Shown here piece after piece: positions 18,520-46,700 of a stretch of DNA of 64,000 nt. The notes beneath the pieces are model-generated. The model ran no database searches. It had not been told where the DNA came from and saw only the letters and a list, made by a program, of their open reading frames with translations. Position numbers and translations under genes: made by a program. Location of the stretch: positions 1-64,000 of the forward strand of contig MEDY01000130.1 of the NCBI GenBank assembly GCA_001724265.1, given 5' to 3'. This stretch comes from Rhizaria sp. SCN 62-66. Taxonomy: Eukaryota. Each line of letters begins with the position of its first letter. Position 1 is the stretch's first letter.

Positions 18520-18556
<37 letters not shown>

Positions 18557-21500: not shown

Positions 21501-23863
21501 CCGAGTCTGCGGCCTCCAAGTCTTCCACTGTGACCGCGGAAGCCGCTGGCGTGGTAATCGAGGTCGATGAGACTGCGGCACAGGCAGCGCAGCGGTACGC
21601 CGCGATGGTGTACGACTTCCTCCACGAGACCCCCGCCGCGGTGCGGTTCTACACTGGCGACGACGCACTGGCCAGCGCGTTCCTCCCGCGCTCGGCGTTG
21701 ACGCCCGCCGTGCTGGCGCAGGTCGACGCTGCCGCGGCCACACACGAAGAGGGCTAGCGCGTGGTGCTGGGCGAGCTCGCGCGGCTGCTGCGCGAGCGGC
21801 CGCCGTTCTCCCCCGCGGTGGGCCGCGCACTGCACGCCGTGCGCGTGGTCGGCCACGAGGACCTGTGTCCCGTCACGCGCTGGCCAGAGCTGGGTGGCGC
21901 GCTCGCGGCATCGCTTGATAAGGCCGTCGCGGCGGGCAAGTTCGCTGAGGGCGCCACCAAGGCCGCAGCGGAGCGTGCGCGCATGGAGGAGTCGTCGCTG
22001 CAGCTGGCGCGTTTCCACGCTGCCGACTACTGGCGCCTCATGGTGCTTACTATGGACGGGGTTGCCGACGAGCTGCAGTTTCTCCCGCTCACGCCCGAGG
22101 CCGCGCGCGCCGTGTCGACGTACCTCACGCACTGGCGCGAGCCGGTATTCCACGCCCGCCGCGTGCGCGAGATGGACATGGCCGCCGCGGCAAAGGTTAG
22201 CGGTCGCCCCGCGCCGGGTGCTGCGCAAGACGCACAGCCCGACAGCAAGCTGCGGCTTAGCGCGGCAGTGCGTGCAGACCGCGCCGCTACGGCGGCTGAG
22301 GCGGAGCGCGCGAAGCAGACCGCTAAGGGCCCCGCCCCGCGGCTGCTTGAAGGGCGCGGCGTGACCGCGGCGGGTGAGCAGGCTGACGATGAGGGCGAGG
22401 GCGACGAAGACGACGAGTTTGCGCTCGACCTCGGCGGCGCGTACGGGCCCGACGCTGAGGCAGCTGCGGCTGCGGCAGCGCGCGCGTGCCCGCGGTCAGT
22501 CGACGCCGACGGACGCGTGCGTGTGGGCGGGTTTGCCGTCGCGCACGGCCGCGAGCGCGCTGTGCTGGATGCGATCCGTGAGGACGAAGAGGGCGACGCT
22601 GTCAAGGGCGTTTCGCTTGTGCTGCCGGTGTACCAGGCCAAGGCGTGGGTGCCGCCGTTCGAGTGCGTGCACTGCGCGCTGGCCGCGTTGGGCAACGCCG
22701 TCGCCGCGGCGCCCGGCAATATTACCATCATGACCGCCGCCACGAGCACCGAGTCGATGGAGCGGTACTGGACCGCTCTCAGCGAGCTTGATGCGCACCA
22801 CGCACAGGCTGGCACGTGCACGCGTCCCCGCGGCGCGCGCGTGCGCCTCGTGGGGCCCGACGGAGATCTCTTCCCGCGCGTGCGCTGGAGCTCAGACGCG
22901 CGCGTGCCGCTGTACCCGCTGTTCAAGCCCGCGCTGGCTCTTCCGGAGCCGGGCGCGCGCGACGACGAGGACGAGTTGTGGAGTGACGAGGAGCCGGCGA
23001 AGCTGGGCCCCGGCGCGGGCGTCACCTCGCTGCCACCGCTGCTCCGGCCGTACCCACTTGGCCCTAGCGCCGCGGTGCCGCCGCCGCTCGTGGGCCCCAC
23101 GCCCGCGAACCCGCTGGCGAGTGTGGCTCCGCTCGACGCCGCGTTCCTCCAGGCTGCGATCCGCGCCGCGGACTCGCACACGGCCGCGCAGCCGCCGCTC
23201 ACGCCCACAACCGCCGCCGATGCCGCATCGTCGAGTGCTGCGGTGGGGTCGCAGTCGCTGCTGTTGCAGCGGTTCGGCAAGTTCATGCGGCCGCCCGTGG
23301 TGGCGCAGGCGGACGGCACCGTGCCAGAGCACATGCGCGTCGTTGCGGCGCAGCAGGCGCTGGAGCGCGCAGAGGAGTCGGCTGTCAAGGCCGTACTGCT
23401 GCGGAAGCAGCGCGAGCTGCAGCTGGCTGAGCGCGTGCGCGCAGCGATGACGGCGGGTACGGAGCAGTCCGCGATCGATGAGGCAGTTTCGAAAGCGCTC
23501 GATCGACTTGAGCTGGCGATGGGCGATGCTGATGGCGAAGTGCTGCGTCTCAAGGGCGAGGTTAAATCCGCGCGCGCTACAGGCTCGGTGCCGCTGCTCG
23601 TCGGCAAGCCTCCCACAGCGAAGCCAGCGATGTCACCGCTGGCTAAGATGCGTGAGCAGACAAAGGTCGACATCGCTGCTCGCAGGGAGCTGCTGCGCGC
23701 CGACACCGCCGCCGCCGCTGCCGGGAGTACCGGCGCAGCTGAGCCCGGCAAGGGCCTGTTCGCCGCTATCACCGGTCATAACAAACTCTTGCGCAAGAGC
23801 AATGCGAGCAAGAACAAGGATGGCGATGACAAGTCGCAGTCTAAGGGCAAGCGCCGTTTGTAA
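15362..23863 (+). CDS. Giant Ala-rich hypothetical protein (~2833 aa) with one in-frame TAG at 21755-21757; possible mitochondrial presequence
   Basis: ORFs 15347-21757 and 21761-23863 are in the same frame, separated only by TAG-CGC. There is no AT-rich spacer or intron-like sequence at the junction. N-terminus is Ser/Arg-rich with an ARAFSS motif; final stop TAA. Confidence 0.75.
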
Positions 23864-24172
23864 GGACAGTTGCACTGGGTGACGCAAGCGAGTAAAAGAT
23901 TCGTTATCATTAACGCATCTATTAATCTTTCTGATGTACCTATTTACCTGTTGTATTTAATCATTATTTGTATTATTGACGTGTTTGTTTCTGTGCAACT
24001 GTCATTATTATTTATTCACAGTGTTCCTGTGAACATTGTTAACAAGAAGTCGTCACAGCCATTATGACTGCGACTCTTCCAATAAAATACATCTACTTAG
24101 AGATCGTCCATAACTATACTGGTGTTGTGTCACATATACTTTTAAGTAGTGCGGAGTCTCAACGCAACGTGC

Positions 24173-27100
24173 TTACGAGGTGACAGCAAAGCTCTTGACA
24201 AGTGCGAGCAGCGCCTTGCCAGTCTCAGCAGCCTCCACACGCGCAGCGTCCTGGTCCTTGGCGATGCGCTGGAGGACAGGCAGCGTGTGCGTGGCGCCGC
24301 CGCCGCACGCGGGCGCGGCTTCGGTGGGCGCACCCAGAGCCGCTGCGGCATCAGCGTCCGTGGTGCAGAAGTACGCCATCATGCTGCGGTGCTGCATAGG
24401 GCCCTCGGTCGCGCTCGCAGCGGCGTCGAGCGCGCCGCAGAGCGTCTCCAGAGCAGCGCCCGCGGACGCTACAAGGTCCACCAGCGCCGCACGCGGGGGC
24501 GCCAGTGCAGCGCCGGCGGCCTCCTCGACGGCAGCGGAAAGCCCGACACGGCCCGCGGCGGCGACCTGCTCCTTGACGGCCGCGCGCGCTGTCTCGGGAG
24601 CGGGCACGGCGACCGCCCATGCGGGCAGCAGCGCGGCAACGAGCGCCAGCGGGCGCGCAACCAGTGCAGCGGCGGCGGCGACCTCCTGGGCCACGCGGCC
24701 CGCGGCCGTGGCGGCGGCCAGCGCGGTGGCGTGCGCGGCGGCCGCGGCCTCGACATCGGCGGCGAGCGCCACGAGCGTGGTGGCGGCGATCTGCCAGCGC
24801 AGCGCGCGAGCCTGTTCCCAGTCCGCGGCGTCGCCCGTGCCGTCCTCCGCGGACGCCGCAGCGGCCTCGTCGAGCACAGCGCCCGTCTCGCACACGCGTG
24901 TCCATAGCGCCCACCCGCGCGCCGCCAGCGCGTCAACACCGGCCGTAGCGGCGTGGTTTGCGGGGCAGTGCGCGGTGGGCAGCAGCGCGGCGAGCGCGGC
25001 GAGCGCGCTGCGCATGGCGGGCGCGTCGTGCTCCAGCCCGGCGCGCGCGCACCGCGGCAGCAGCAGCGCGACGCGCAGTGCGGACACGGCGCCGTCAGCG
25101 GGCAGCGTGTAGACGTTGTCAAAGACGCGGCTCGTCTCGGCATCGCGCTGCAGCGATGCCAGCGCGCCGTGCGCGGCCGCGAACGAGTCGGACATGGTCC
25201 ACGGCGCGGGCGCGTTGAGCGCAGTCGCCAGCGCGGAGAAACCCGTGGCCAGCTGTCCCGCGGCGAGCGCGGCGGCGGCAGCATTGTTGTTGCCACCGGT
25301 GGCGGGCACGGCGGCGTGGCAGCGCACTATGCCGCGGTCCTGGTTTTGGACCAGCACGCGCGCCAGCGCCTCGCCCGCCGCGTCGGTCAGCGCCGGGGAC
25401 AGCGCGTCACCCTCGGGCGTAGTTACGACGGCGGCGGCGGTGACCGACGGCTGCAGCGCGAGCGCGGCGGCTGCGGGCGTGCCGTAGTGGCGAGCGAGCA
25501 CCGCGGAAACGAGCCCATCGGTGTCCTTGACGACACGCGAGGCGGCAGCGCGCGCAGCGGCTGCGGCGGCGACGGCGCCGTCGGCATCCGCGACTACAGG
25601 CACAGTGAGCGCGGTGACGATCGCGTCCCAGGCCGCGGCGGCGTTGCAGGCCCAGAAGCTGTGTGAACGCTCCATGCGTGAACGGAACTCCTGGAAGTCA
25701 AGCACTTGCGCGTATGTTCCTTCGTTGTACGCCGCGGCGGTGAGCGACGCGTCATCGGCGCGGTGTGGCTGGACGAAATCCTCGTTGGCTTCGGCAACCT
25801 CGCGCGCAACGGCGCGGCGGCCCCAGCGCAACGCGTCATCAAGCCACAGGTGCGCCATCGACTCATTCTGCACCGTCCTCACTCGCAGGCCGCCGGGGTC
25901 GCTCTCGCCGGCCAGCTCGCGCGCGCGCCCCACCGCGCCCAGCGCGGGGTGAGCGTACAGACGCACCAGCCAGAGTCGCGCGTCGGCGTTGTCAACGTTC
26001 GCGCCGGCGCCCAGCTCCAGCAGCAGCACGGCGTCGACGACGGCGGCGCGCTCGGCGGCCACAGCCACAGCGCGCGCCGCGGAGTCGCCCGCCGCAGCGG
26101 CGCGGGTAGCTCGGAGACGCGCGCGCTCGGCGACCTCGAGCAGCGCTGCGGCGGCCGACGGCAGCAGCGGGTCCGCGCTTGTGGGCTTGGGCGCGGGGGC
26201 GTCCTCGGGGACCTTGAGCTCGAGGTGGTTGCGCGTCTCGTTGTACCGCGCGAGCTTCTGCGCCATCGCCGCCGCATCTGCGCTGACTGGGGGCGCGGCC
26301 TCGTATGCGACAAAGCGCGCCGCAAGCGCGGCAGCGTGGCGCTCCAGCGCGGCGTCATCGAGCGCGGCCACGAGCCCCAACCGGAGACGCGCAGTCTCGA
26401 GCGTGACGCCCCGGCGCACAGCGCGGTCGCCGGCGTCGCTGCGGCCTGCTGCCGTGTCGGCGTCGTTCGCGGCCGCCGCGGCGGCCTCGAGCGCGGTTTG
26501 CAGCGCGGTTGCGGGGCGGATCGTGGCAGCGGCCTCGGGCGCGGTGGCCAACAGCGCGATCACAGCAGCGGCGGCAGAGGCGGGGGCGGCGGCCTCAGTC
26601 GCGGCGGTGGCGGTGAGCGTGGCGGGCAGTGCAGCGACCGAGGCCGCTGCGGGAGCGTGCGCAATAACGTCGAGGTACGCCGCCATGTCCTCCTGCGCGC
26701 ACGGGGCGGCGCCGTAGGCGGAGAAGTAGCGCACGAGCTCGGCGCAAAGCACGGCGAGCGCGTCGCTATTGGCGGTGTTGGCGGCGTAGCCAAGCCGCGC
26801 GGCCTCCACGGCCGCCAGCGCGGGGCCGCGGACGAGAGGAGACTTTGCGCCCAGTGCGCGATACACCGCCACGGCCTCGGCGACGGCCTCGGCGACGGCG
26901 GCGGCGTCAGCGGGGGCCGCGACAGGGCAGAGCGTCTCGAGCGGCCGCGGGAGGGACTCGAGCCCACAGACCGCGGACGGGTGGGCATGCGTTCCGCCCA
27001 CGGTCAGGTACGCGTGGGTGGCCAGCCAGCGCCAGTCGTCGGGCGCGCGCGCGATCTGTTCCGCCGCCAACGCGCGCAGTGCAGTGGCCGTCTCAACGGG

Positions 27101-28129
27101 GGCGGAGGGGCCGCGTAACAGCATTAGACGCGCACGTAGCAACGCGGCCTCAGCGGGGCCCATGTGCGTCGCCGCGCCCGCACCCGCGGGGCCCGCCAGC
27201 AGCGCCAGCGCGCGCGCGGCCGCGGCGGCGCGGGCGGCGTCGGCGGCGGCAGGATCCGCGGCGTCGGCGGCGGCGCACTCGCTCTGTGCGAGGATCGTGC
27301 GGAGGTAGAGATCGAACACAGCGGGCGGCTGCGACGCAGTTTCAGGGTGCTGCCGAGCCAGCATGCCCTGCGCCAGCGCCAGGAGCTTCGCCGACGGCAG
27401 CGCAGCGCACAGCCCGATCGCGGCCGTTGCTGAGGAGGCCGTGGGCGTGCGGTCGCGGAGGAGCGCGCGGTGGGCGCGCTGTTGCTCGAGCGAGAGCAGC
27501 AACGTCGTCGCCGACCAGCAGAGAAACGGCGCCGCCTTGGTTAGACTGTACAGCTTCATGGCGAGCTGCTGCTGGCGCGCGAAGGCGCCCGAGCGGCCGA
27601 GCGCGGTGAAGAGCATCTGCACCATAGTGTCTGTGGCGCCGGGGAGCGCGACGGCGGCCTCGAGTGTGGCGATGAGCTGCGCCCAGTCCGCGTCAGGGCG
27701 GCGCTTAATGCCGTACTGCCACAGGTTAAAGTCCTGCGCGGTGAGGCGTTCGGGCGGGGCGAGCGTCTTGATGCGGGCCGAGATAGCCGCGATTTCGGGC
27801 TCTAACGCGGGGTCTTGCATGCGCGCGGCGCACACAAGCGCGAAAACCAGCAGCGACGGGTGCGGCCCCACCGAAGAGATGAGGTCCGAGACGTGCTTGG
27901 CGGCGAGCGCGAAGTTGCCGTTGTCGAGGTGACGGTACAACGGGGAGAGGTTCGCCGAGTTGAAGTTCTTGAGGGGCATGCTGCTCGTCGCGGTCGCGGC
28001 AGCAGAGGGCGTGTAGGCCGCAACAGCGGGGGCAGCCGCTGCGGGCGCCACGAAAGACGAGGACGCAGACGCGGACGTCGGCTTCGAGGCCGGCTTTGAC
28101 CCGGCCCTGGATGCAGACTTGGGAGGCAT
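24173..28129 (-). CDS. NAA25: NatB N-terminal acetyltransferase auxiliary subunit (NAA25/MDM20)
   Basis: LSPLYRHLDNGN, QQQLAMKLY, FLCWS, RLWLVRLY..LG, LRVRTVQNESMAHL and AYNEGTYAQVLDFQEFRSRMERS match remembered NAA25 blocks; ends TAA. Confidence 0.88.
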   Translation of the reverse strand: MPPKSASRAGSKPASKPTSASASSSFVAPAAAAPAVAAYTPSAAATATSSMPLKNFNSANLSPLYRHLDNGNFALAAKHVSDLISSVGPHPSLLVFALVCAARMQDPALEPEIAAISARIKTLAPPERLTAQDFNLWQYGIKRRPDADWAQLIATLEAAVALPGATDTMVQMLFTALGRSGAFARQQQLAMKLYSLTKAAPFLCWSATTLLLSLEQQRAHRALLRDRTPTASSATAAIGLCAALPSAKLLALAQGMLARQHPETASQPPAVFDLYLRTILAQSECAAADAADPAAADAARAAAAARALALLAGPAGAGAATHMGPAEAALLRARLMLLRGPSAPVETATALRALAAEQIARAPDDWRWLATHAYLTVGGTHAHPSAVCGLESLPRPLETLCPVAAPADAAAVAEAVAEAVAVYRALGAKSPLVRGPALAAVEAARLGYAANTANSDALAVLCAELVRYFSAYGAAPCAQEDMAAYLDVIAHAPAAASVAALPATLTATAATEAAAPASAAAAVIALLATAPEAAATIRPATALQTALEAAAAAANDADTAAGRSDAGDRAVRRGVTLETARLRLGLVAALDDAALERHAAALAARFVAYEAAPPVSADAAAMAQKLARYNETRNHLELKVPEDAPAPKPTSADPLLPSAAAALLEVAERARLRATRAAAAGDSAARAVAVAAERAAVVDAVLLLELGAGANVDNADARLWLVRLYAHPALGAVGRARELAGESDPGGLRVRTVQNESMAHLWLDDALRWGRRAVAREVAEANEDFVQPHRADDASLTAAAYNEGTYAQVLDFQEFRSRMERSHSFWACNAAAAWDAIVTALTVPVVADADGAVAAAAAARAAASRVVKDTDGLVSAVLARHYGTPAAAALALQPSVTAAAVVTTPEGDALSPALTDAAGEALARVLVQNQDRGIVRCHAAVPATGGNNNAAAAALAAGQLATGFSALATALNAPAPWTMSDSFAAAHGALASLQRDAETSRVFDNVYTLPADGAVSALRVALLLPRCARAGLEHDAPAMRSALAALAALLPTAHCPANHAATAGVDALAARGWALWTRVCETGAVLDEAAAASAEDGTGDAADWEQARALRWQIAATTLVALAADVEAAAAAHATALAAATAAGRVAQEVAAAAALVARPLALVAALLPAWAVAVPAPETARAAVKEQVAAAGRVGLSAAVEEAAGAALAPPRAALVDLVASAGAALETLCGALDAAASATEGPMQHRSMMAYFCTTDADAAAALGAPTEAAPACGGGATHTLPVLQRIAKDQDAARVEAAETGKALLALVKSFAVTS

Positions 28130-28673
28130 GTGAAGTGAACGAGGTCAAGGGCTAGTGGTCCGCGGAAGCGCTTTGCGCCTGCAACAAAGAGTCAGGGAAT
28201 GCGGGCGATTGAAGTGGATTGGAAGTGGTAAGCGGAGCTTTTAGGCGTATAATTATAGGAAATCATATATAACACACCAAAGTCTATCAAGGTTGTACTT
28301 GATTCCCTAAAATTCGGATCTATCCTTGTCCACATTCTTCTTAAGTCTAGCAGGTCAGTGCGGCTGTGGAGCTCCCTCGGCTCATCGGCTGACTTGGCAG
28401 ATTCTCGATCTTGACATGGCTCATTCTCGCTAGAACCATCGTGTAATGTTCATATTCTTGCTTAGTTGGTTATTAGCATTGATGAGTCATCTGGGTTTTA
28501 TATTGTCTCTCTCACAAACGTCATCTGTGCCTCTTGTCACACTCTTTCGTGCCACCCCATCACAGCGACTCCGACAGTCTACCAATCACTTCGCCCGACC
28601 GGTCCCGTTCCAGGCTCCTTTCTTTCCACTTCACTGCACACCCCCGCCTCGGTGCCCCGCCCTTCCCGCCGCG

Positions 28674-29422
28674 ATGAACTCCGTACTGAACCGGCTGAAC
28701 CTGGTCGGTTTTTTCGCGCTCTGGGCGCTGGGGCTTGCTGCGCTTCTCTCTGCAATCACGGGCGCTTTCCAGCCCTCCGCGCCGTACATCCGCATCTACA
28801 ACCCTGAGCTCACATCCTACGGCACCCACGTTGGCACCATGATGTACCACACGCAGAAGCGCGGACAGACGGCCGAACTGCGGTTCGACCTTGACATGGA
28901 GCTGTCGACGCTGTTTAACTGGAACGTGAAGCAGCTCTTCGTTTGGGTGTCTGCTGAATACCCTACAAAGGGCTACCGCAGCAACCGCGTCACTGTGTGG
29001 GACACTGTTGTTGACGCCGCGGACCGCGCGGAGGCGGACATGTACCTCGAGAACCAGGTCGCAAAGTACCGTCTCACGGACATCGCAGGGCCCATCGAGT
29101 ACGTCACACAGCAATCATTTGTCGTATTTTGCACAATCTCATTGCTGTAGACTTGAAATATTTGAGAAATCGTTATCTGTTGATGTATAACATTGATTTT
29201 ATACGAACGCGTATTTCACAAACTTTATGACTCACTAAACCCCATTCTTCCATTCTTTCTGTTTAATTTTGTGTTTTGTGATATTTCTCCGCGTTTAGCA
29301 ACATTCCTGTAAACCTTACGGTGCACTGGGAGCTGACGCCTGTGATGGGCCTCTTCCGTCTTGGCGGCGGGCCTCAGGTTCACACGCAGAGCTTCATGCT
29401 CTCTGCCGCTGACCTCGTTTAA
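28674..29422 (+). CDS. SPCS3: Signal peptidase complex subunit 3 (SPC22/23); exons 28674-29098 and 29299-29422
   Basis: MNSVLNRLN + TM helix, LFNWNVKQLFVWVSAEY, NRVTVWD, KYRLTD. Intron 29099-29298 (GTACGT...TTTAG, 200 nt) gives NIPVNLTVHWELTPVMG...; ends TAA. Confidence 0.93.
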
Positions 29423-30826
29423 GTCCGCACGCAAGGCCGTTGTGTTGCTTGGAAGTTGTGAGTCTTGCGTTGCGCACGTGAGGCAGAGATATAGGTGGTT
29501 GTTTCGTTATAAATAGAGTATTCATGTTATATTTACAAGGTGGCGGAAGGATATTAATTAACTTATATGTATATAATATGAAATGAATAAAAAACCGCAA
29601 CGAAAAAAATGCGTAATTTAACAGATATGTAATACGGAACAGGCCTAACGAGACCATTTACGGACGTAAAGACAGGAAAAGGAAGAAAAACAACAGTGCA
29701 AGTAACAATGGGTTTGAATGGGGTGAATGACTGGGGAGACTGAATATTGATGATTCTTGATTGCTTATTGTTTGTTATTGTTGTAGTAGATTATTATGAG
29801 TATGTTTGGAGGCAAAATACGATGTGAAGATTGTGAGTGCAGTGGTGGCCGATCAAACTGGGTGGTAGAATAGTAGTCAGCGTAGCGCGCAGACACACGC
29901 GCATACCGGTGATGGATAACGTTTGACAGAGCGAGGCATGCTGCTTTACCGTATCGCATGTGACACAGAGGCAACACGTCATGCCTGTCTGATAGACACC
30001 GCGACACAAGACACAAACACACACTTGGAGGCATCATACGATCACATACACGCATACGCGCGCATACACAGCAGAAACAACACAAGCCTGCGCACATTGA
30101 AGCTGCGCGGCACACTTACATCATTTCATAACGCACCAACCAAGATAAGAACCGCGATAAAGTGATATCACGACTGCGAACCAACTATGAACCGTGACTG
30201 CTACACACAGTCTGCGAGTGGACGTGTCTGTGCGCGTGACAGAGTGTTTGTGCGAGTGGGTTGACTGCGAAAGCATATGCGGCCAGTCCGGGGAATCATG
30301 GGTCCAGACACGACACAACACGAGCATCACAGTGAGGCACGGCAAAACATCAGCACACACAGCAAGCACATCAACACGCAGATCACATCAACATAACACA
30401 GGGCAATGCAGCGCCAGTGCGAAGCGAAGGCAAATAGCGGGAGCAGACACAACTGACTGGCAGACGGACGGTTGAGAGATAAGAGATGATGAAGATTGGG
30501 TGAATACTGAATAGAGAACGCGCATGTGAAAACGACGGTGGGGAAGCGGTGTGTCAACATGAAAAGAGACGAAGGGAAGAAGCAAAAAGTAGAGAGTTGA
30601 GAGAGTTGAGAGAGCAAAAGAGCGAGGAGATTGATGACGGCTGGAGACAGAGAGATAGAGATGCGAGGAAAACGAGAGAGGGATCACGGCAACCGCGGGA
30701 ACGCAACGAGCGCAGCGGACAGCGCGCGAACATGTCCAAAGTGGTGAGCAAGTGGGTGGGAGTAAAAACATGTGGGCATGTGACAATGCATGTGACCCTG
30801 TAGGAGCATATGAGTGCGCGCATGTG

Positions 30827-30828
30827 GT

Positions 30829-30870
<42 letters not shown>
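30827..30870. repeat. Compound microsatellite (GT)13(GA)9
   Basis: Read directly from the sequence, in the long non-coding region downstream of the PKA gene. Confidence 0.92.
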
Positions 30871-32272
30871 AACTCCTTCCAAATCACCAAGCAGAGCCAG
30901 GGCTGGAGATGGACTCAAACAGGACCAGCGCTGGTCACCGAGTCGGAGTGGCAATGATGGCATGGTAGACTGACATACGCACATATATACACATATACAC
31001 ACAGATGCGCGCACACAAAAGCTGTGTCAGAAGCAACGTCAGCAGCAACAAACAAGCATACAAGAGAGCAACACGTTATCCAAAGCAACAATAAAGGAAC
31101 AAATTGACAGATGAAAAAAGACCCCACCCGCACCCCAAGCGGTGGACAAGTGGCTCGCGGAGGCAGGGCGGGACACAGAGTGAAAGCACAAAAAACGACA
31201 ACAGGCGGCAGAGACACACAGGCCAACCAACAGTGGCGCAGCGGCTGCCAGTGCCGTGCAATGCACAGCGCTGCGTTGTAGAGCAAGGCAATCTGCACAG
31301 ACTTTGCATACCATAACAAAGCCTGACACAGAACACATCCAGACACACAGAGCAGCAGCAGCAACAGCAGGAGCAAAAGCAGGCGCGGTAAGCGTCATCA
31401 CTGAGGGCTGAACGTTTCAGAGACACAGGGCACGCGCGTACCAAGTCGAACACACGGGCCCTGGTCTGGCCTCTTCTCAGCTCGCAGTGCTATCTTCGTT
31501 TCGCACTCGCACGCGCACGTAGCACTCGCAGTGGGGGACCGGAGGACGTGAGGGACGGTGAGAAAAACAAAACAGGAACAGTAAAAAGGGTACACGTGAA
31601 AAAACAAACATAAAAAGTAACTAGCGGACGAATGCTTTGCAGAATACGAATGAATGAACATGGGTGAGTGACTGAGGGATTGAGGGGGGAATGAATATTG
31701 TTGGACGAATCGAAAAAAAGTGAGTGAGAAAAATATAAAGTAAAGCAGTTAAAGTCGTGACTCAAAATGAATACTTTTTTTTAAGCACCGACGCGAAAGG
31801 TAAGCAAACAGAAACGAGGAGAGTCGGCAAGCCAAAGAAAAGACGAGCGAGGGACGAGACAAAAACAACAAAGCAAGTTGTAGCAGTGACTGAGTGAGTG
31901 GTGATGCTGTGTAAAACAGAGTGTGTTAGTGTTATGTGTTGAGGTTTGACTGCACAGCATAAACGTGCACTACAGTCAAATGACAAACAAAACAGTCCGA
32001 TACAGCAGACAGCTCGACGCACAGAACACCACCAACAATCACAATACCGACGAACAAGCGAGCGGCAACGAAAGAGTACAACATACGACAACAGATTACG
32101 TGATAACGGAAGTGCATCACACCGTCATCAGTTTGGATTCATTTTCAGTTTGTCGCATCGTTGCAGCCATATGTTCATCGTTCGTTTTCATTGTTGTGAT
32201 ATTGTTTACTTTTGCAGTCGTATATCTCAAAACACACACAGTCCGATCCATGGATTGGCCAACGTCGTGTCT

Positions 32273-33832: not shown

Positions 33833-34669
33833 TCTGTGGCGACAGCGGTTGAAATATAGCACAAAGAACAAGGGTTGGGGTGAAATAAAGGCCAAGTGAG
33901 CACCAAGTCAGGGTGCCAGAGATACCGAGTCTGACATAAAGCGAGACGTTTCTCGCGAATATGAACTGCAAGCCCCGCCACAGACTCGTGGAATAGTCTT
34001 CCCCCAATGCTTAAAATATTATATTAATTTACTGCCGTTACAGGAGCACGGGAACCTAGGCTGGAGGGCGTCAGACGGGTTTTGACTGGGCCTCCACTGC
34101 CTCCCCGTCTAAGGGGCCGCCAGCCCTTAGACGCGTCCACCGAGCCGTTTCTCACCCCACACCTCTCTGGCAGGAGGGCACTCGGCGCTTTGCAAACCGG
34201 CCTCCAGCGCTCAACACCACCGTCAACTGGCTCTACAAAGGCATATTATAACAAATTGAGCCATGCATTCATCCTATACTCTTATTATTACCACCCATCT
34301 CCACTGCCTGGCGTGCGTTGTCGAGCTGTTCGAAGCGCCCGACGACCCTTCGACTGCTCGTGTCCGTTTGACCTGCCCCCTCTGAATTTGCGTCCTGTGC
34401 TCACGTTATGCTTTCTTGTTTGCTACTTCGCACCACCCTTAGACACCCGCGCTCTACTAGCGCGTGTATCCGGACTTTGACTTCGCAGTACTGACGTACC
34501 GGAGGTCAACTCACCCGGCTTTCGTTTCTCCCACAAACACCCCCCGGTCAACCAGTCTCGCACGAGAGAGACTTACCTCTCCGTCCGTGCCCGGCTCCAC
34601 CCTCTTGCCCTCGCACCCGGCAACCCCCTCGTGCCCTGTTTTACAGGCTTCTCCGCTCACACACCGAAG

Positions 34670-37600: not shown

Positions 37601-40075
37601 GGCCAGCAGTCGCAGTCCGTCGCGGGCTTCGAACACGCGGCCGGCGGCGGCGGCGGCAGTCCCGAAGACGCGGCTAAGTACGAGAAGCTCCGCGGCGACC
37701 ACGCCAAGTCTCTGCGCGATCTCGAGCAGTCGAAGAAGCGCTACAACGACCTGCTGATCCTGCAACGCGGTGTCGAGGACAAGCTCAACGCTGGCGACAC
37801 TGAGGGCGCGCTTGAGCTGCTCCGCTCCGGCACCGACGAGTCCGGCGCGCTCCGCGGCATCGCGGGCGCCGCGGGCAAGAGCGACAGAGTCGGCGAGGGC
37901 AGCGGCAGCGGCGCGTCCGCGGCCGTTGTGGCCGAGCTGGAGGCGCGCATCGAGACCGAGCGCTCTGCCAAGGAGGCCGCCGAGGCCGAGATCAAGTCTC
38001 TCCAGGCGCAGCTCTCGGTGCTGCAGTCGTCGTCGGGCAGCTCGTCCGCGCAGCTGCAGCAGCAGCTCGCGACGGCGTCGGGCGACCTGCAAAAGACCGC
38101 TGCCGAACTGGAGACGGCTAAGACGCGCCGCGCTGAGCTCGAGACCGAGCTCGCCGCGCTTAAGTCTAGAGCGGGCGAGGAGAAGTCTTCGCTCGACGCG
38201 CGTGTCGAGGCGCTTGAGGCGTCGCTGTCGTCCACCCAGGGCACGCTCGACGCCAAGAACGCAGAGCTGTTGACGCAGATCGCCGCGCTTGCCGCACTTG
38301 AGAGCCAAGTGCAAGGCCTGAACCGCCAGCTCGCCGGCAAGGACGAGGAGATGCTCAGCAAGCTCGCCGCCGCCGAGGCCGCCGCCACTGCCGCACTCAC
38401 GGCCGCGCAGGAGGAGCACGCGCGCGCGCTCGAGGAGCAGGACGCCGCCGCCAAGGCCGAGCTCGCTGCCGTTGCCGCCGAGCGTGACCGCGCTGCCGGT
38501 GCGCTGGCCGCCGAGGTTGCGCTTAAGGTTGCCGCCCTCGAGGACGCCGCTGCGAAGCAGGCGCGCATCGAGGAGCTCGACAAGGAGGTCGCTGACTGGT
38601 CGAAGCGTCTCGCCGATCTCTCCGTCAAGTACGTCGAAGAGCAGGAGCGCCGCAAGTACTTCCAGCAGGAGTACGAGGCTGCTAAGGGTAAGATCCGTGT
38701 GTACGCCCGTGTCCGCCCGTGGATTCGTCTCGAGAAGGAGTCCGACAATCCGCAGGCGCTGGTCAAGTGCGTGCGCCCCGGTCCTAACGTGTGGAGCATG
38801 ATGCTCAACCACCAGAAGATGTCCGTGCAGGATAACAAGCTCATGGACGACTGGAACCCCAAGACGTTCGACCACGTGTTCCTCGGTGGTTACAATGACG
38901 ACTTCCCGGGCACCGACAACGGCTCTCAGGCCGAGGTGTTCAAGGAGTGCGAGGGTTTCGCCGAAATGGCCTTCGATGGCCTCAACACGTGTATCTTCGC
39001 CTACGGCCAGTCCGGTTCCGGCAAGACGTGGACGATGCGTGGCTCGACCACGGACCCCGACCAGTGGGGTCTGAAGCCGCGCATGGTGCGCCACCTGTAC
39101 CAGATGCGTGACGCCACCAAGGCGCGCTACGAAGTCCGTATCTTCTGCACCATGTTCGAGATCTACAACGACGAAATTCAGGACATTTTCGAGCGCCACG
39201 AGCAGGTTCAGCGCTGGGAGAAGGAGAACAAGAAGTGCTACAAGTGCTATGCGCCCGACCACAGCTTTATCGAGTGCACCAACTGCGCCAAGTGCCGTCA
39301 GCCTGGCCACTCGTTCTCGCTCTGCAAGGCCAAGCAAGCCGGTAAGTTCTACCTCGACCGTTTCGATCCCCCGTCGAAGAAGCTCGAAGTCAAGGTTCTC
39401 GGTAACCAGCGTGTCGCCATCAACGGTCTCCAGGAGCGCACGTGCCAGACGTTCGACGAGATGCAGCGCCTCTGCGATGAGGCTGAAATGCTGCGTCGTG
39501 TGCGCGCCACGGGTCTGAACGATGAGTCGTCGCGTTCGCACCTCATTTTCGCGATCCACATCGAGAAGAAGGAGAAGAACCCCAAGGACAAGAAGAACGC
39601 ACTTCCGTCGTACGGCAAGTTGTCGCTCTGTGACCTTGCCGGTTCCGAGCGTGCTGAGCGTACGGCCATGGGCAAGGACATCTCGCCGCAGGACAAGGCG
39701 CTCATGGAGCTCGAAGGCAAGCGTATCAACCAGTCGCTGTCCGTGCTCACGTCTATTTTCGCTGCGCTCGGTGCCAAGCTCAAGCCAGGAGAGAAGCGTC
39801 AGCTGCCGCGTTACCGTGAGAACCTGCTTACAAACGCCATGCAGGACTCGATTGGTGGTAACGCGCGTACGCTCATGTTCGTCAACGTGTCGCCGTCGCT
39901 GATGAATTTCGAAGAGACGAAGCAGACGCTGTCGTACGGTGATCTCGTGCAGAACATCACTGGTGCTGTCGCGACCAGCGACGTCGACGTTGAGCAGTAT
40001 GTTGACCGTATCGCCACGCTCGAGGAGCAGCTCAAAAAGTACGAGGCTGCGGCGCACCACGCGCCCCCCGAGTGA
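34670..40075 (+). CDS. Kinesin-14-type protein: long N-terminal coiled coil, C-terminal motor with inserted tandem CCHC zinc knuckles
   Basis: Neck KGKIRVYARVRP, P-loop IFAYGQSGSGKT, EIYNDEIQD, switch I NDESSRSH, switch II DLAGSE, INQSLS, GGNARTLMFVNVSP; ends TGA. Confidence 0.95.
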   Translation: MSVPVSRSSAIVGVNDPNLPVKDLDDVYAARAQAELMGADEQEQLSREEPYVPLAMAEIRVRSMMGDLKDMKADHLERMNHLQKTYDDLLRNQHKVANDMLDKVRDKAAERIKAYKDKAMAINKQMIADKKAQEKAQRVAEKEVKAMKKNLDAIIRAKKDLDEELAARERKLNKKHEELRQANEKLRDLEDNGKGSAEQAAALAAEVGTLGTEVEALRGTVAKKDEEIARLNLSLDNTSSGLYRLKADGVTASAGEAEKLHRDLIDTQQRAQVLETERGQLMTEIARLGALVAAGATSAEVSAGDSAKLHALESQLADLDRARRVEAEKHHATLVALDDKHGKDKAGALLAQKTLYDKMLKQMTKAGEDQEKAKAREAKDSAVNVKVGAAKREADEAARKKALADQQKEEADDRFNHCDGRLNEVDAELAAKLKRKQEVDPELTVRARELTEKQRAADAAEGDRDRVSKYSEDEGRAQMAKFGLNWDDVNGPLVTQLLEVSKHYNLQKAGQEDMKTIKAEHEELKALAASPDQEIAGPAKVKTKDLSAKFKAVKDEATAHKAQWTELVQNLGLKESGVPFDKDADFDELALAAEMWHEVMRKQPAKRADPSALPPHIVEALAAFGVAPAAFTPEVVADMETIVADFGRQRALQEQMKTLKNDFDACKANTKDNEAARDAAKDELAVARAEGAPQDVVDALQAKVEGHMKEVEANSAKGKEVFGQFTDVKNEATKAKAAWTATMKKNNLDSNGRAFDKLADFDLLSQIVSEYKEHINKAPEEVSERVVTDDASPEGPSAELKALVEQLAAEEAALAQAIDSLKNERVKLVQDKEEYEDQQQMAALAAVSANKEVMRLRAKLTEAQKAAAAEAAANGGAAPEDDEDEEDLTGGVRITIPGDMAEAQKELIDARFALAQAEKQSEAFRQQIHDERKKYNQSIDDLETRIRELEAEIERWKRLEQQWKITAGTFYAKSGIMGQQSQSVAGFEHAAGGGGGSPEDAAKYEKLRGDHAKSLRDLEQSKKRYNDLLILQRGVEDKLNAGDTEGALELLRSGTDESGALRGIAGAAGKSDRVGEGSGSGASAAVVAELEARIETERSAKEAAEAEIKSLQAQLSVLQSSSGSSSAQLQQQLATASGDLQKTAAELETAKTRRAELETELAALKSRAGEEKSSLDARVEALEASLSSTQGTLDAKNAELLTQIAALAALESQVQGLNRQLAGKDEEMLSKLAAAEAAATAALTAAQEEHARALEEQDAAAKAELAAVAAERDRAAGALAAEVALKVAALEDAAAKQARIEELDKEVADWSKRLADLSVKYVEEQERRKYFQQEYEAAKGKIRVYARVRPWIRLEKESDNPQALVKCVRPGPNVWSMMLNHQKMSVQDNKLMDDWNPKTFDHVFLGGYNDDFPGTDNGSQAEVFKECEGFAEMAFDGLNTCIFAYGQSGSGKTWTMRGSTTDPDQWGLKPRMVRHLYQMRDATKARYEVRIFCTMFEIYNDEIQDIFERHEQVQRWEKENKKCYKCYAPDHSFIECTNCAKCRQPGHSFSLCKAKQAGKFYLDRFDPPSKKLEVKVLGNQRVAINGLQERTCQTFDEMQRLCDEAEMLRRVRATGLNDESSRSHLIFAIHIEKKEKNPKDKKNALPSYGKLSLCDLAGSERAERTAMGKDISPQDKALMELEGKRINQSLSVLTSIFAALGAKLKPGEKRQLPRYRENLLTNAMQDSIGGNARTLMFVNVSPSLMNFEETKQTLSYGDLVQNITGAVATSDVDVEQYVDRIATLEEQLKKYEAAAHHAPPE

Positions 40076-40582
40076 GCGCGCTAACGAAGCTTTAACATAC
40101 GCTGTGGGAGGAGGATTATTAAGAAAGAAAGATTTAGAAGCAATGGAGGTGATCTGTGTTTGTTCTTTAGACGTGCATGGTGCTGGCTGTTAACTGTGGG
40201 CGCGATGCTGCGTGTGGCGTGCTTGGGCGCGGTGACACAACAGTAGCGACGACAGCGGCCTGATAATGACAGCGTTGTGCGATAACGATCGTTGGAGTAG
40301 TGATATAGTTGGCCAGGATACGGCCTTAGTTCTTAGGTGTGCAATTTATAGAAACTACATTTTATTAGAAAACAATAAATTTAATACAATACATTACTAT
40401 TATTTTCGTAACTCTCGTTTATGCCTCATTTTTAAATGGAAAAAAGGAATGTCGTCACACTTTGTGCAGTTCGATGGTGGCGCAATCGCGAGGGGTCCCG
40501 GATGATCGAGGAATTCGTTCAACTGGAGCTCTGCGAACAGTCCGTCAACAGTGTGCGCACCATCACGAGGTGCTTTCCTACG

Positions 40583-41611
40583 ATGGAGACTGCAATTACA
40601 CTAAATCATTTTGTTGAGCTTCACTCGCAAGCTCTCCGCTTCCTCACAAAACAAGACGCCACAATCGAGTCTTGGTTGGCATGCCGCGACCAGTGCTCCC
40701 GTCAAGTCTCCTCCCTCGCCAACCTATGGCCGCGCCTCGAACTCTTTGCGACAGCATCTAACACCTGCTCGCCGCCCTCCGCCGGCACGAGCGCGGATGC
40801 CGGCGCCGGCTTCGCGTCGTCGCAGGCCTTCGACGCGCTTGGCGTGCTCTGTGCGTTGGATGCCGGCGCCGCCCCGGGCCTCGGCGTCGGCTCCGAGCTC
40901 CTCTCTCTCTGCGCGGATCAGCTCGCCGCCGTGCTGCGCAACCTTGCACAGCTCTCAGGCACGCTCACCGCGCGCGCCGCCGAAGCGCACGAAACTGTCA
41001 CAGCGCTGGCTGCCGCGGTGGCAGAGGCTGCGCTGCCGCCGGAGCTGCTGGTGCGTGTGCCGCCGCTGCCCGGTGACCAGGCCGCGCGCGCGCCGCCGCT
41101 GCCGATGACCATCGCCGATGCGCTCGCGCTGCTGCGCACGCAGGCACAGCTCGTTGCGGACGAGAGCGCGCGCTTGGCAGGTCTGCTGGCTGCCGCGACA
41201 ACTGCTTCAACAACGTGGACCGCGGCTGGCAACGGCTCACAGCACTGTGTTTCAACCACTGACGTCGTCGCTCAAGCAGCCGCGGCCGCGAGCGAGACTG
41301 TGAGCGAGGGCCACTGGGAGCTTGGTACGCGGCTAGGCGCGGCGCTCGCTGCTGCGGCGACTGGCAGCGTCGGCCGCGGCGGCGGCAATGGCGGAGCTGG
41401 CGGGTTTGAGTTCGCGCACAGTGACACACAGGGCGCTCAGACGGGCGTGCTACGACTGCAGCCCGCGCGCACGGGTACGCGGACCGAGCCGGCGCCGCTG
41501 GGCGTGCTGCCGGAGTTGCCCGCGCACTGGGCCGGGAACGGCGTTGCGGTCGCGCGCTTGGCCGAGGGCCGCAAGCTTGTCACTGCCGCCACCAAGAAGC
41601 CGCGCCAGTGA
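40583..41611 (+). CDS. C1orf109/AIRIM-like (CA109-like) protein, tentative
   Basis: W...C...VSSLANL..RL, then a helical segment and PMTIADALALL, resemble remembered C1orf109 blocks (W...C..LLSSLSNL; PSVADMLEWL). Coding-like composition; ends TGA. Confidence 0.55.
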   Translation: METAITLNHFVELHSQALRFLTKQDATIESWLACRDQCSRQVSSLANLWPRLELFATASNTCSPPSAGTSADAGAGFASSQAFDALGVLCALDAGAAPGLGVGSELLSLCADQLAAVLRNLAQLSGTLTARAAEAHETVTALAAAVAEAALPPELLVRVPPLPGDQAARAPPLPMTIADALALLRTQAQLVADESARLAGLLAAATTASTTWTAAGNGSQHCVSTTDVVAQAAAAASETVSEGHWELGTRLGAALAAAATGSVGRGGGNGGAGGFEFAHSDTQGAQTGVLRLQPARTGTRTEPAPLGVLPELPAHWAGNGVAVARLAEGRKLVTAATKKPRQ

Positions 41612-42070
41612 GTGGTAATGTCGCTGAACACTTGCACGCACGAGATATCGTGTGAATTCGAGTGTGACCAACCAGTATATAGCATTGTTTTACCTAGAAC
41701 ACATGACTTCATGTCGCACGACGGGCCGATACTCATTTTTCGACCGCTCCAGACTGGGCTGTTGGGTGCTGACCCGCGGCGGCAGACTTGGGAGATCCCC
41801 CCGATCTGCGATAACAAAATACATTGTTTTGATCTTGTCTTTACGTGAATCGCGTTCATGCTTGCGTTTTTGGATTATCTCTAGGATTTTCCATATTTAA
41901 TATCAATTGTTTTGTCGATCGAGCCGCTGTGTCTCTGCTAAAGTGTCGTTTCGTGATGAGGCTTGCGCACCACATCAAGCTATGACGTTTCAGGTCTCCG
42001 AAGCCAGAATTCTCACAACATACCAACTGTTTCCCCGTTTCTTTCTTGTTTTCTTGCGACCGCGATAGCT

Positions 42071-43161
42071 ATGGGCTTCCTCAACATTGCCGGCATTGTG
42101 GCCGTGGGCGTCATCGCGTACGCGGTGATCAAGTTCTTCTACCTCCACTTCATCATGAAGACTGACCTCTCGAAGTATGGCGCCAAGAAGGGCGCGTGGG
42201 CCCTCATCACTGGTGCCCGCGACGGCATTGGCAAGGGCTTTGCTGTCGCCCTCGCCGCGCGTGGCTTTAATGTTATCCTCATCGCGCGCAACGCCGAGGG
42301 CCTGAAGGAGGTCGCGGCTGAGATCAAGGCTAAGTCTAAGGTCGAGACCCTCGTCGTGCCCGTCGACGCCTCTGCGCCCACCGCTGTGGCCGAGATCATG
42401 AGCAAGATTGAGGGCAAGGACATCCGCGTCCTTGTCAACAACGTCGGCGTCAACACGCAGTTCCCCTGCAACCTCGCCGAGACCGACCAGGCTGAGATCG
42501 ATGGGTACGCCTTCATATCTATCTCTGATGGTCAAATCGTTCACCTCAGCTGTTTAATTGCAACATAGAGTGAGATCTTAAATGACATATGTTTATTTTT
42601 CCAACACTCATATCTAACGCTAATGGTTTCCGTCTTGTGCTTTGCTTCTTCCTTCGTAGCATGATCAACATCAACGTGACCTTCACGACCAACTTCACCC
42701 GCGCGATGATCCCCGTGCTCCAGAAGTCCAAGAACTCGCTGATCTATATGCTCTCCTCTTTCTCCGGCATCGTCCCCGTTGGCATGATGCCCGTGTACTC
42801 GGCCACCAAGGCGTACAACGACGTCCTTGCGCGCGCGCTCGCCGCCGAGCTCGCGCCCACCGGCGTTACGGTCAAGTCCGTCGTGCCGCACTTCGTCGTC
42901 TCGGCCATGTCGGGCTTCTCGCGCGCCACCTGGGCCGTCCCCGACGCCGTGTCCTTTGCGCACGCCACGATTGCCAAGACCGGTATCTGGGATGTGTCGA
43001 TTGCGCCCCACTGGTGGCACGACCTCACCATGCGCATCGCTTCCGCTGCGCCCGACTTCCTCATCGGCGGCTTCACCGTCAAGCAGATGAAGGCGGCCCG
43101 CGTCAAGCTCATGCGCCGCGCGGAGAAGAAGGCGGCTGAAAAGGCTGCTGCTGCTCAGTAA
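42071..43161 (+). CDS. SDR, very-long-chain 3-oxoacyl-CoA reductase / 17beta-HSD12-like; exons 42071-42504 and 42660-43161
   Basis: N-terminal TM, WALITGARDGIGKGFA, LVNNVG, catalytic YSATK. Intron 42505-42659 (GTACGC...CTAAC...CGTAG, 155 nt) joins EIDG-MININV; ends TAA. Confidence 0.92.
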
Positions 43162-43721
43162 GCGTGGTAACTCGCCGCTCTGCCACTTCCGCGAAATGTA
43201 AATCACACTTGGCTGCGATCACGCCGCGCCTCGCCACTCACTTTGTTCTTTGTTGTCATAAGATAAATACAAGCCCATTGTTTTCCAAGGTCTTAATATC
43301 TCTATCATATTCAAATATTTACGTTGGTTGAGTTTATTCCGTTTATTTTTGACTCTGTTGTTTGCGCGCGCGCGTCACTTGTCACGGAGTCTCCTCCTTG
43401 TCCACGCGCACACAGTCGTTGTGTCCGTTGCAATGAGTCTCGCGATTTTGATACCACATTTCTGTATGAGTGCTCGTTTGTTTAGCAATTACTCTTAGTA
43501 TCAGGACGTTATACCACATGGGATATTTGGATATATAATTCAAATCCTAACATCTATCTGTATTGTTTGAATTTTTGTACCTTTTTGTCTAGTCTTCACT
43601 GTAGGCAACGTCCTCATCCATCTCTCTACTATCCGAGCCATTCTCACTTCCGTCGTTGCACAGCACCCCGGCGCAAGCGTTTCCCGCGTTCGCCCTTTCC
43701 GCGCGCTACGCTTGCCCCACA

Positions 43722-46700
43722 ATGTCCCAGTTTCTGGACGCGCCCTTCCCGCTCCCGGCGGCGGCGGTGGCCGAGGCACGCCGCCGTCTTGAGGCCCCCT
43801 TGCCGTCTGACACGCGTATCCAGCGCTGCCCAGACACAGGACTCGTTTTCTACGTTCACGACGACCGCCAGACGACGTCTTGGACGCATCCGTTGTGGCC
43901 TCTTCCGCCGCATCCATCCGCACTCGTTGCCGCTGTTGCAGAGGGCGCCCACAGTCCTACCAATGCCTCAGCTTAGTCCGCGTCCGCGCCTGCTGTTGCT
44001 GCTGCGGGCGCGCTCGCGGCCGCGGTGGCTGCACTGGAGCCCGGGTGGAGCGAAAAGAAAGACCCCGACGGCGCATCATACTACCTGCCTTTGCCGCCAC
44101 CAGCGCGTCTCACAGTCACTTCAATATCAACGTCCTCGTCGTCGCATCCGGGTGACGCTTCAAACGCCCCTGCCTCAGACAGCAGCAACTACGCGGGCGG
44201 GGCGTCGACTGCGGCAACCTCATCCTCGGCACCGGTGTCGTCGACTAACACAGGGACACTGGGTGCCGGGCTATACCGGGACCCGCGCGGCCCAGTTGCG
44301 CAGGCTCTGCTGCCCGCTCTCGCGCTGCCGCTGCCGCTGCACCTGGAGCCGCGGCTCGACCCGCGCGGGTACGCCTACTTAGCCGATCTAAGGGCCGGCG
44401 GGACCGGGTGGGCAGATCCCCGCGCCGCCGCGCCGGTCGGCTGGGGACAGAAGCGGCTCCGACGCCGTAATGCCACCACCGCCACGAACAACAACAACGG
44501 TGGCAATCCCAGCAAGAGTGCGAACAGTGCCGTGACACCTGCCGCTGCCGCTGCGACCGCGGGTGCGGGGGCGAGTGGAGGCGACCGCGAGCAGCAGGGC
44601 CACTGCGTGCACCCGCTGTTCTGCGCTGCTGTGGCTGCGCTGCGCTCCTGGGCTGCCGCACGCACTGCCGCGACGCCTGGAGCCGCGACTGGGGCGGACA
44701 CTGAGGCAGCGACTGAGACTGAGTTCGCGAAGACGGCGACTACTGCCGCTGCGGTTGACTCTGCTGCAGTGGCTGCGCTGTTGCGTCGTGACAGAGTGAC
44801 ATGCGGATTCACTTCTGACTGCGGCTTAACTTCCGCTCTCGGCGCCCTCTCGCTCTCACACCCCACTCCTGCGTCAACGTCACTCGTCAGCAATGACTCT
44901 GCTCGTGACAGTAGTAGTGGGAGATGGACGTGGCGCGACGCACTGCTGTGGGCTCTCTCCTCGCCCGCCGCTGCCGCTGCGAACGCGACCAACGCTGTCT
45001 CTGATAACAACAGCAGTAACAACAACAACAACAGCAACGACGACAGCGACAGCCGCAGCGACTGTAACAGCTGCTACTGCGAGGCTCTGCTTCCCCCGCC
45101 ATCTCTTTTGCCCGCGTCCGCCACCGCTGCTACGGGTACTCATGGGACTCACGGAGTGGTAACACGTGTGTCGCAGCGCGCACCGGTGCCGTTCTCGCGT
45201 CCCCACGGGTTTGTCACGTGTTTCTTCGCCGCAAACGCGCCCGCCGCGGCGCTTGCCGCCGCGCCGCTGCTCCGCGTTGAGCCGCGTACATCCGGAAATG
45301 ACTGTGAGCAGGGTGACTGTGAGCAGGGTGACTGTGAGCAGCAGCAGCAGGGTCAAGGTGAAGACGATGATGCCATTGACGCACTCATAGCCTCCGCACT
45401 CGCTGCTCACAGTCACTCTGCTGCTCACAGCCACTCTCCAGGTCTGGTAGCGCCCCAGTCGGCCACAACAGCTGTCGAAAGCGAGCTGCAAGACGAGGCG
45501 AGTCCGTTGCGTGCACTGGGCGCACTCCTTTGGTCGCTGCCGCGCTGGGCTCTGGCGCCGACCGCATCCTCCGCCGCTCCCGCCGTCGCCGCGGTCGCCG
45601 TCATTCCGGCCGAGTCTCATCCCGCCCCCCAGTCTAGTACCGCCCAGTCAAATAGCGCACAGTCTCGTCCCGCTCAGTCGACGGCTGCGGGCGAGTGTGC
45701 GGGCGGCGCGTGTGTGAGCGCAGAGCTGGCTGCGGCGGCGCGGCGGTGGGCTCTGCGCGCGGCGGCCACCGCGGCCTGTCTGCCGCCCGCCGCCGCCGCC
45801 GCTCTGCTCACGACGGATACGCAGCGCGAGCAGAAGACGGACGCCGGCGACGCAAGGACTGTGATGTCAGGGCTGCCTGCCTGGGCGCGCGCGCGCACCG
45901 CGGCCGCCGCGGCCACTGCTGCGGACTCAGCAGTTCTGGCGACCACCTTGGCACTCACGGAGCCTCTGACCCGCGTATCCGAAGACCCCCGCTTGCAGGC
46001 CCCGCTGCACACCGCACTTCCGCTCCCAGCAACGACGGACTGCGGTGTCAGTGCTGGCTCTGGCGCTTCGACTGGGCTATTGGCGGGGCGCGGGGATGTC
46101 GGCGCCGCCACGCTGCAAGGACTTGCCGCGCTCCTCACCGCGACTACCGCCGCAGCCACTGCCAATCTCAACACCATTAGCAAGAATACCAGCAAGAGCA
46201 AGAAGAAGACTGCGAAGGGCTCCGGTGGCGATGCTGACTGTGAGCACGCCGCTGCCGCCGTATCCGACGCTGTTGCGCCTTCTGTGCCCGCCTGGCTGCG
46301 CACGGCCGCCGCGTCTCTCGACACCCGCGACTGTAACAGCAGCGAGATCAGTGCCGACGATGCCGTGATGCGTGTGCTGCGCGCACTGGGCGTGCCGCGC
46401 CGCGTCCGCCGCTGCGCCGCCGCCGCCGCCGCCGCGCGCGCGCAGTGGCGGCTCCGCGTCGACCCCCGCGGCACGTACTACGCTGCCAACATTACCACCG
46501 ACCCAGCCTCAGCCGCCACAGCAATCACAACGGGGAAGAACACAGTGTCAGCGGCGACAACGGCGACTGTGAGCTGGTGGGATCCCGCGGACGTGCCGCC
46601 CCCTGGGTGGCGGCTCGCGGTCACACGCGCCGGCACACGCGTCTGGCTGCCCGCCCAGTCAAACCCTTCAGCCAACCACAAGGATGGGACTGCGATTAGG

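Follow-up and report, generated by a model that had tools for sequence, protein, structure and literature searches.

Two long genes in the 64,000-nucleotide stretch of contig MEDY01000130.1 (Rhizaria sp. SCN 62-66) analyzed here, the whole of which is called the window below, each carry a single in-frame TAG codon, and no TAG is found at any of the 17 gene ends defined in the same DNA. The two codons, TAG1 in gene 1 and TAG2 in gene 2 (Table 1), are real, stand in frame with coding sequence on both sides and lie off the gene boundaries, and TAG2 is also present in a contig of an RNA library. The explanation tentatively preferred here, at a little under an even chance, is that this organism decodes UAG or terminates poorly at it, and a single window of 64 kb cannot tell UAG decoding from two tolerated premature stops.

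Two in-frame TAG codons and the DNA around them

Fifteen gene models, amounting to 16,724 codons, were obtained in the window, and they hold two in-frame TAG codons and no in-frame TAA or TGA. When TAG was read as a sense codon, only two coding-frame open reading frames (ORFs) were merged, those of gene 1 and gene 2, with one odd codon each. A preliminary description of this stretch had reported the two codons and had let their frames run on for about 700 and about 2190 codons; both codons were found at the places it gave, and the frames were measured to stay open for 701 codons past TAG1 and for 2193 codons past TAG2.

The pattern of GC content at the first, second and third codon positions (GC1/GC2/GC3) of gene 1 was unchanged across TAG1. 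A log-odds score for codon usage, with seven other genes as its training set, was positive in the frame of TAG1 on both sides of the codon and negative in the other two frames. In this frame the segment 21890-21964 reached a score of 18.5, and the first ATG past TAG1 is located downstream of it, at 21983. This high coding score 5' of the ATG indicated that the part following TAG1 was not a separate gene starting there. Furthermore, both genes are split at their TAG by gene callers. Gene 1 figures in the protein collections as pieces of 2131 and 700 amino acids (aa), and both pieces recur (ENA, Logan assemblies): P0003, the 2131-aa piece that ends at TAG1, was found on three contigs and P0124, the 700-aa piece that starts after it, on four.

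Gene 1 was not assigned to any Pfam family. When its residues 1980-2480 were compared with 5.8 billion proteins, only its own 2131-aa piece was recovered, and residues 1700-2833, compared with 1.84 billion representative proteins, recovered only its own two pieces; among the protein collections searched there was no variant of read-through length. The 701-aa part following TAG1 gave 142 pattern matches and no relative in the JGI metagenomes, and the 700-aa piece gave no usable match in an Atlas search. The AlphaFold2 model of the 300 residues around TAG1 had a mean pLDDT of 40.8 and was unusable.

In gene 2, no stop occurs in the 629 codons that separate TAG2 from the following in-frame ATG, and the other five frames contain 9, 29, 14, 12, and 12. 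The coding score was weaker in this gene because of its low-complexity region. Eight out-of-frame ATGs intervene before the next in-frame ATG, which is 630 codons past TAG2, and the long ORF therefore has no plausible start under the standard code. Hence, with the standard code, an intact ORF of 2193 codons containing a complete kinase domain would be left untranslated. The possibility that gene 2 starts in another open frame, 43567-44382 (ATG at 43963), was considered as well and was rejected, as the coding score was negative there. The search with residues 1-420 of gene 2, limited to proteins of nearly the same length, gave no match, its own piece included.

The presence of TAG2 in a second sample was observed in X4, a polyA metatranscriptome run of 2025 belonging to a study distinct from that of the 2015 sample from which the window may derive. 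The contigs of the runs were compared with positions 28000-47999, an interval with TAG2 inside and TAG1 outside. One 300-nt contig of X4 was colinear with 43800-44099, with no letter differences and no gaps; TAG2 was therefore present in an independent sample and unspliced in that molecule. The X4 contigs are likely of RNA origin, although contigs of RNA libraries can derive from DNA. Several intergenic bins had zero depth in X4, seven of its eight listed pieces were inside genes, and no listed X4 contig crossed a known intron. TAG2 is not spanned by any of the listed DNA pieces of the runs X2, X3, and X5, which speaks neither for nor against it. The runs X2 and X3, entered under different studies and years, showed the same listed pieces and the same letter differences at almost the same depths; they may represent a single data set deposited twice and are best treated as one. 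In all, 14 letter differences between runs were found, 11 of them in genes (2 synonymous), too few to test selection.

The AT-rich segments closest to the TAGs, 23775-24196 and 43213-43649, touch neither codon, and the GC content around both TAGs is 65-80%, which upheld the earlier remark that no AT-rich spacer accompanies them. Three introns were found in the window (Table 1). They are AT-rich (~35-42% GC within genes of 70% GC), have a length of 139-200 nt and use the donor GTACG[TC] and the acceptor CAG or TAG. All three spliced models are in frame and stop-free, and Pfam profiles extend across the junction in two of them: exon 1 of the SPC22 gene corresponds to positions 1-134 of the SPC22 profile and exon 2 to positions 141-167, and the two halves of the dehydrogenase correspond to positions 2-102 and 102-190 of the adh_short profile. 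In these same two genes a mechanical ORF ends at a TAG that is intronic. The ORF 28446..29150 has its terminal TAG at 29148-29150, the real stop of SPC22 being the TAA at 29420-29422, and the ORF 42071..42568 has its terminal TAG at 42566-42568, the real stop of the dehydrogenase being the TAA at 43159-43161. The organism is intron-poor, and its donor site is very uniform.

The closest GTA[CA]G before TAG1, at 21610, would yield a GC-rich, frame-breaking intron of 148 nt, and no GTA[CA]G is present between 43600 and TAG2. From the sequence, an intron removing either TAG is unlikely. More generally, the two codons might be artifacts, that is, a sequencing or consensus error, an unrecognized intron by which the TAG is taken out, or a pair of neighboring genes in the same frame. 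Introns do exist here, two of the mechanical ORFs proved to end at an intronic TAG, and the comparison with reads and RNA covers TAG2 only. Nevertheless, an artifact is considered highly improbable: TAG2 is identical in the independent RNA-library contig, the ORFs bounded by TAG1 recur on three to four contigs, the AT-rich introns with their GTACG[TC] donor are unlike the GC-rich DNA around the TAGs, high coding scores are found upstream of the first ATG past TAG1, there is no AT-rich spacer, and the bases following the two TAGs differ from those following 16 of the 17 real stops (see below). Several outcomes that the preliminary description had named as damaging to its own proposal did not materialize: TAG2 was not spliced out in the one RNA-library contig across it, TAG1 recurs as an ORF boundary on three to four contigs, TAG is absent from the gene ends of the window, and neither codon resembles a gene boundary.

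Gene ends and a possible decoding of UAG

The 17 gene ends consist of 10 TAA, 7 TGA, and no TAG, three of them being defined through intron-aware models; the count given in the preliminary description was thus reproduced. The probability (P) of finding no TAG among 17 ends is 0.023 if TAG has a share of 20% among stops, 0.06 at 15%, and 0.17 at 10%. TAA accounts for 10 of the 17 stops despite a GC3 of ~0.85. When only the stops of the type TAR were considered, the absence of TAG among the 10 had a P of 0.006-0.018 at a TAG share of 33-40%, and a P of ~0.006 if the third base followed the composition of the spacers only.

The base following the stop codon (+4) is a purine in 16 of the 17 true stops (9 G, 7 A, and 1 T). 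Relative to an even expectation P is 1.4e-4, and this bias suggests strong selection on termination efficiency in the organism. True stops often read TAAGC or TAAGT. The base after TAG1 is C and that after TAG2 is T, unlike nearly all true stops, and the two codons are therefore not like evolved terminators.

The pyrimidine at +4 of both TAGs, compared with the purine at nearly all true stops, would also be in line with gene-specific stop-codon readthrough under the standard code. UAG would then be a true stop whose weak context lets near-cognate tRNAs through, and short and long isoforms of gene 1 and a low-level expression of gene 2 would result. In eukaryotes, termination is weakest when the +4 base is a pyrimidine, and in particular C. 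Nevertheless, this explanation is improbable. A +4 pyrimidine is expected in 37% of codons, and two in a row have a P of ~0.14. The 120-nt stretches 3' of the TAGs fold no better than shuffled ones (z of -0.58 and -0.50), and no CARYYA-type motif is present 3' of either codon. With TAG2 at codon 85, readthrough would have to be the sole route to any product of gene 2, and the absence of TAG terminators would be left unexplained.

If UAG is decoded, as preferred here, it would not be an efficient terminator but would be read as an amino acid, and UAA and UGA would end all genes. It could be a sense codon that has been reassigned and is used at very low frequency, or else a stop that is ambiguous and suppressed. 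Ribosomes would pass both TAGs by means of a tRNA with the anticodon CUA or owing to a weakened eRF1. Gene 1 would be translated into a protein of 2833 residues and gene 2 into a WW-kinase protein of 2278 residues, and the single residue encoded by UAG in each would lie within a low-complexity stretch of poor conservation. Glutamine as the encoded residue is a guess from the one-step neighbor CAG. The use of UAG for pyrrolysine or selenocysteine was rejected, since neither is known to be decoded from UAG in eukaryotes.

A more specific proposal, plausible although we hold it at somewhat less than even, is that of an early-stage, UAG-only reassignment, in an uncultured eukaryote of wastewater bioreactors, in which UAG has been purged from the terminators, the stops left have a strong purine context, and the first sense UAGs have appeared in weakly constrained parts of long genes. 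If true, this stage would give a rare view, in nature, of the intermediate predicted by the codon-capture and ambiguous-intermediate models.

Possible premature stops and known changes of UAG

Several observations weigh against a decoded UAG. In-frame TAG occurs about once per 8,000 codons, one to two orders below the published cases. There is no TAG in the 7,737 codons of the nine Pfam-supported models other than gene 2, and therefore none aligned to a conserved residue, although in so small a window this absence does not amount to a refutation. No detectable homologues of the TAG regions attest to purifying selection downstream of the codons. The genes concerned exceed all other models of the 15 in length, and it is in such genes that a premature stop is most likely to arise by chance. 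Of the nonsense changes possible in one step in these coding sequences, 69-71% yield TAG, as CAG, GAG, AAG, TCG, and TAC are common here and CAA, GAA, and CGA are rare; the TAG-only pattern therefore carries little weight. Furthermore, the lack of TAG among the 17 gene ends has a P of 0.06-0.17 if TAG makes up 10-15% of stops. The window itself contains neither a tRNA (ARAGORN and Rfam) nor an eRF1 gene.

The proposal of the preliminary description that UAG serves as a sense codon has thus fared unevenly: the in-frame TAGs are real and the terminators are free of TAG, but no conserved gene contains the codon and its density is far under that of known cases. Likewise, the observation that the in-frame stops are exclusively TAG holds, but as an argument it is weak in view of the share of nonsense changes that give TAG.

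Additionally, a distant relative of the organism uses TAG as a stop. L001, whose Dis3 is 50% identical to that of the window and which has 52% GC, ends three of six long ORFs at TAG, the Dis3 ORF included, and any code change would therefore be recent and lineage-specific. The scan of the Dis3 alignment comprised 80 loci, of which only L001 and L004 are in the Dis3 clade, at 50% identity and without synteny to the window. No mis-binned contigs were found when Dis3 was compared with the prokaryote genome collection, and an Atlas search with Dis3 carried no taxonomic signal. L001 also encodes, at 17985-20930, an ATP-citrate lyase of the single-chain type, whose four domains all lie within one ORF.

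With the standard code, the two TAGs would be recent nonsense alleles or young unitary pseudogenes in long, fast-evolving and probably dispensable genes, and the absence of TAG terminators would reflect codon-usage preference and small-sample chance. This is a serious possibility, although rated as rather less than even. That both codons are TAG has a P of ~0.5 under plain nonsense mutation. The two genes, the longest of the models, make up 31% of the 16,724 codons; among 1.84 and 5.8 billion proteins there are no homologues of gene 1 or of the N-terminal portion of gene 2; no conserved gene carries a TAG, and the distant relative L001 ends genes at TAG. TAG1 is located at 75% and TAG2 at 4% of the gene length, and it is at such positions that tolerated truncating variants cluster in yeast and in human population data. 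The two genes resemble premature-termination alleles and young unitary pseudogenes in having a single in-frame stop within an otherwise intact ORF, in being long and poorly conserved, and in the position of the stop, which is either close to the 5' end or within the last quarter.

Nevertheless, the two TAGs differ from such alleles in that there are two among 17 neighboring genes, one of them is shared across studies ten years apart, and no TAG terminator is present. No second lesion was found in the 701 or 2193 downstream codons, where the coding score persists and the kinase domain is intact, although a very young allele would show no sign of decay either. TAG2 would abolish an otherwise intact kinase gene, and yet it is common to the 2015 and 2025 samples, which belong to different studies and whose contigs differ at other sites. 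No intact allele was present in the protein collections searched, and the absence of TAG among 17 terminators would be an independent coincidence (P = 0.02 at a share of 20%). As rough priors, a truncating allele is taken to occur in about one gene in 100 of wild microbial eukaryotes and a UAG-only change in about one protist lineage in 1,000; combined with the evidence, these priors place a code change and premature stops near even. If the standard code holds, the window contains an ordinary pair of truncating alleles, and it gives the warning that nearly all chance nonsense codons in GC3-rich genomes are TAG.

A decoded UAG would have few precedents, as nuclear codes in which UAG has changed while UAA is still a stop are described for just a few lineages (PMC5304391). 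In the fornicate Iotanema spirale, UAG is reported to encode glutamine: 204 in-frame UAG codons are given for 126 genes, 22 of 28 UAG codons at hyperconserved positions align to glutamine, 119 complete transcripts end with UAA (104) or UGA (15), and eRF1 carries the change T32G (PMC5304391). The window is similar in that UAG is the only in-frame stop codon and the terminators are UAA and UGA only (10 and 7 of 17). Unlike that organism, it has two UAG codons in 16,724, none of them in a conserved gene. In the rhizarian exLh, UAG is described as leucine, with 384 UAG codons in 71 genes, leucine at 82 of 86 hyperconserved positions, and 56 UAA and 15 UGA terminators; half of the ribosomal protein genes are without UAG (PMC5304391). 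UAG-only in-frame codons and UAA/UGA terminators are shared with exLh, in which the use of UAG is uneven between gene classes, whereas nothing in the window points to leucine or to any other specific residue.

UAG-only reassignments are also reported in phyllopharyngean ciliates (PMC11687900), as is a ciliate code in which UAA and UAG differ in meaning (PMC10553269). In those ciliates, as would be the case here, UAG changes its meaning on its own; unlike them, the window carries long genes that are rich in GC, and its introns are of the canonical GTACGT kind. In Amoebophrya sp. ex Karlodinium veneficum, stop codons are described as sense codons used at uneven frequency, and the recoded codons as absent from about half of the annotated transcripts (PMC6394959). 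This provides a precedent for a recoded codon that is absent from many genes. Nevertheless, all three stops are affected in that genome, which is AT-biased, whereas TAG alone is concerned here and the coding DNA is GC-rich. If true, the decoding of UAG in the present organism would be an independent case with a use of UAG far lower than in any described, and it would bear on how reassignments begin.

Gene content of the window

Both strands carry genes, with AT-rich spacers of 0.2-1.6 kb between them; the GC content is 65-75% in coding DNA and ~40% in spacers. The public runs that contain the stretch are metagenomes of bioreactors, wastewater and activated sludge, from six studies. Table 1 collects the features, most of the genes being named after their Pfam matches. 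The glutaredoxin-like gene probably has one intron.

Table 1. Positions of the two in-frame TAG codons, their genes and other features of the window.
Feature	Positions	Strand	Remarks
Gene 1	15362..23863	+	2833 codons; Ala-rich orphan; ends with TAA; TAG1 at codon 2132
TAG1	21755-21757	+	Context GGC TAG CGC; +4 base C
Gene 2	43722..50558	+	2278 codons; WW-like motifs, long low-complexity region, C-terminal protein kinase; ends with TAA
TAG2	43974-43976	+	Context GCT TAG TCC; codon 85 of gene 2; +4 base T
WW-like motif upstream of TAG2	43821-43892	+	PF00397 (Pfam); E 4.3e-4; 20.7 bits, under the curated 26.9
WW-like motif downstream of TAG2	44034-44084	+	PF00397; E 1.1e-3; 19.3 bits, under the curated cut-off
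Protein kinase domain of gene 2, intact	49242-50078	+	PF00069; E 7.5e-48; profile positions 2-262 of 263; 1756 codons past TAG2
Proteasome alpha-type gene, C-terminal part	left window end	+	By eye from the translation; stop TAA 582-584
Intron of the proteasome alpha-type gene, near its 3' end	386-524	+	GTACGT donor, CAG acceptor
Dis3/Rrp44 exonuclease	952-4914	-	Named by Pfam
SPC22 (signal peptidase subunit) gene			Named by Pfam
Intron of the SPC22 gene	29099-29298	+	GTACGT donor, TAG acceptor; AT-rich
Short-chain dehydrogenase			Named by Pfam
Intron of the short-chain dehydrogenase gene	42505-42659	+	GTACGC donor, CTAAC motif, TAG acceptor; AT-rich
Full-size ABCG transporter			Named by Pfam
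NatB subunit			Named by Pfam
AGC-type kinase			Named by Pfam; ends with FDDF
C-terminal-motor kinesin			Named by Pfam
Glutaredoxin-like small gene	57914-58320	-	By eye from the translation; stop TAA 57911-57913

The closest named Dis3 proteins are ~50% identical to the Dis3 of the window, and metagenome proteins reach 85% (P0005) and 66% identity over the RNB region. A match to the PIN domain (PF13638) is lacking in the Dis3/Rrp44 of the window and in its seven closest metagenome relatives (P0005 and P0008-P0013), and this domain is present in most of the other eukaryotic Dis3 matches listed.

A stretch of ~2.8 kb, 29450-32270, is without a convincing ORF and has ~50% GC. An A-over-T skew of 0.40 was measured in 30001-32000, and CA-type microsatellites are located near 30800-30900. 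A contig of the RNA library maps to 31082-31451, inside this ORF-poor stretch, which may correspond to a long untranslated region of the adjoining kinase gene or to a non-coding RNA.

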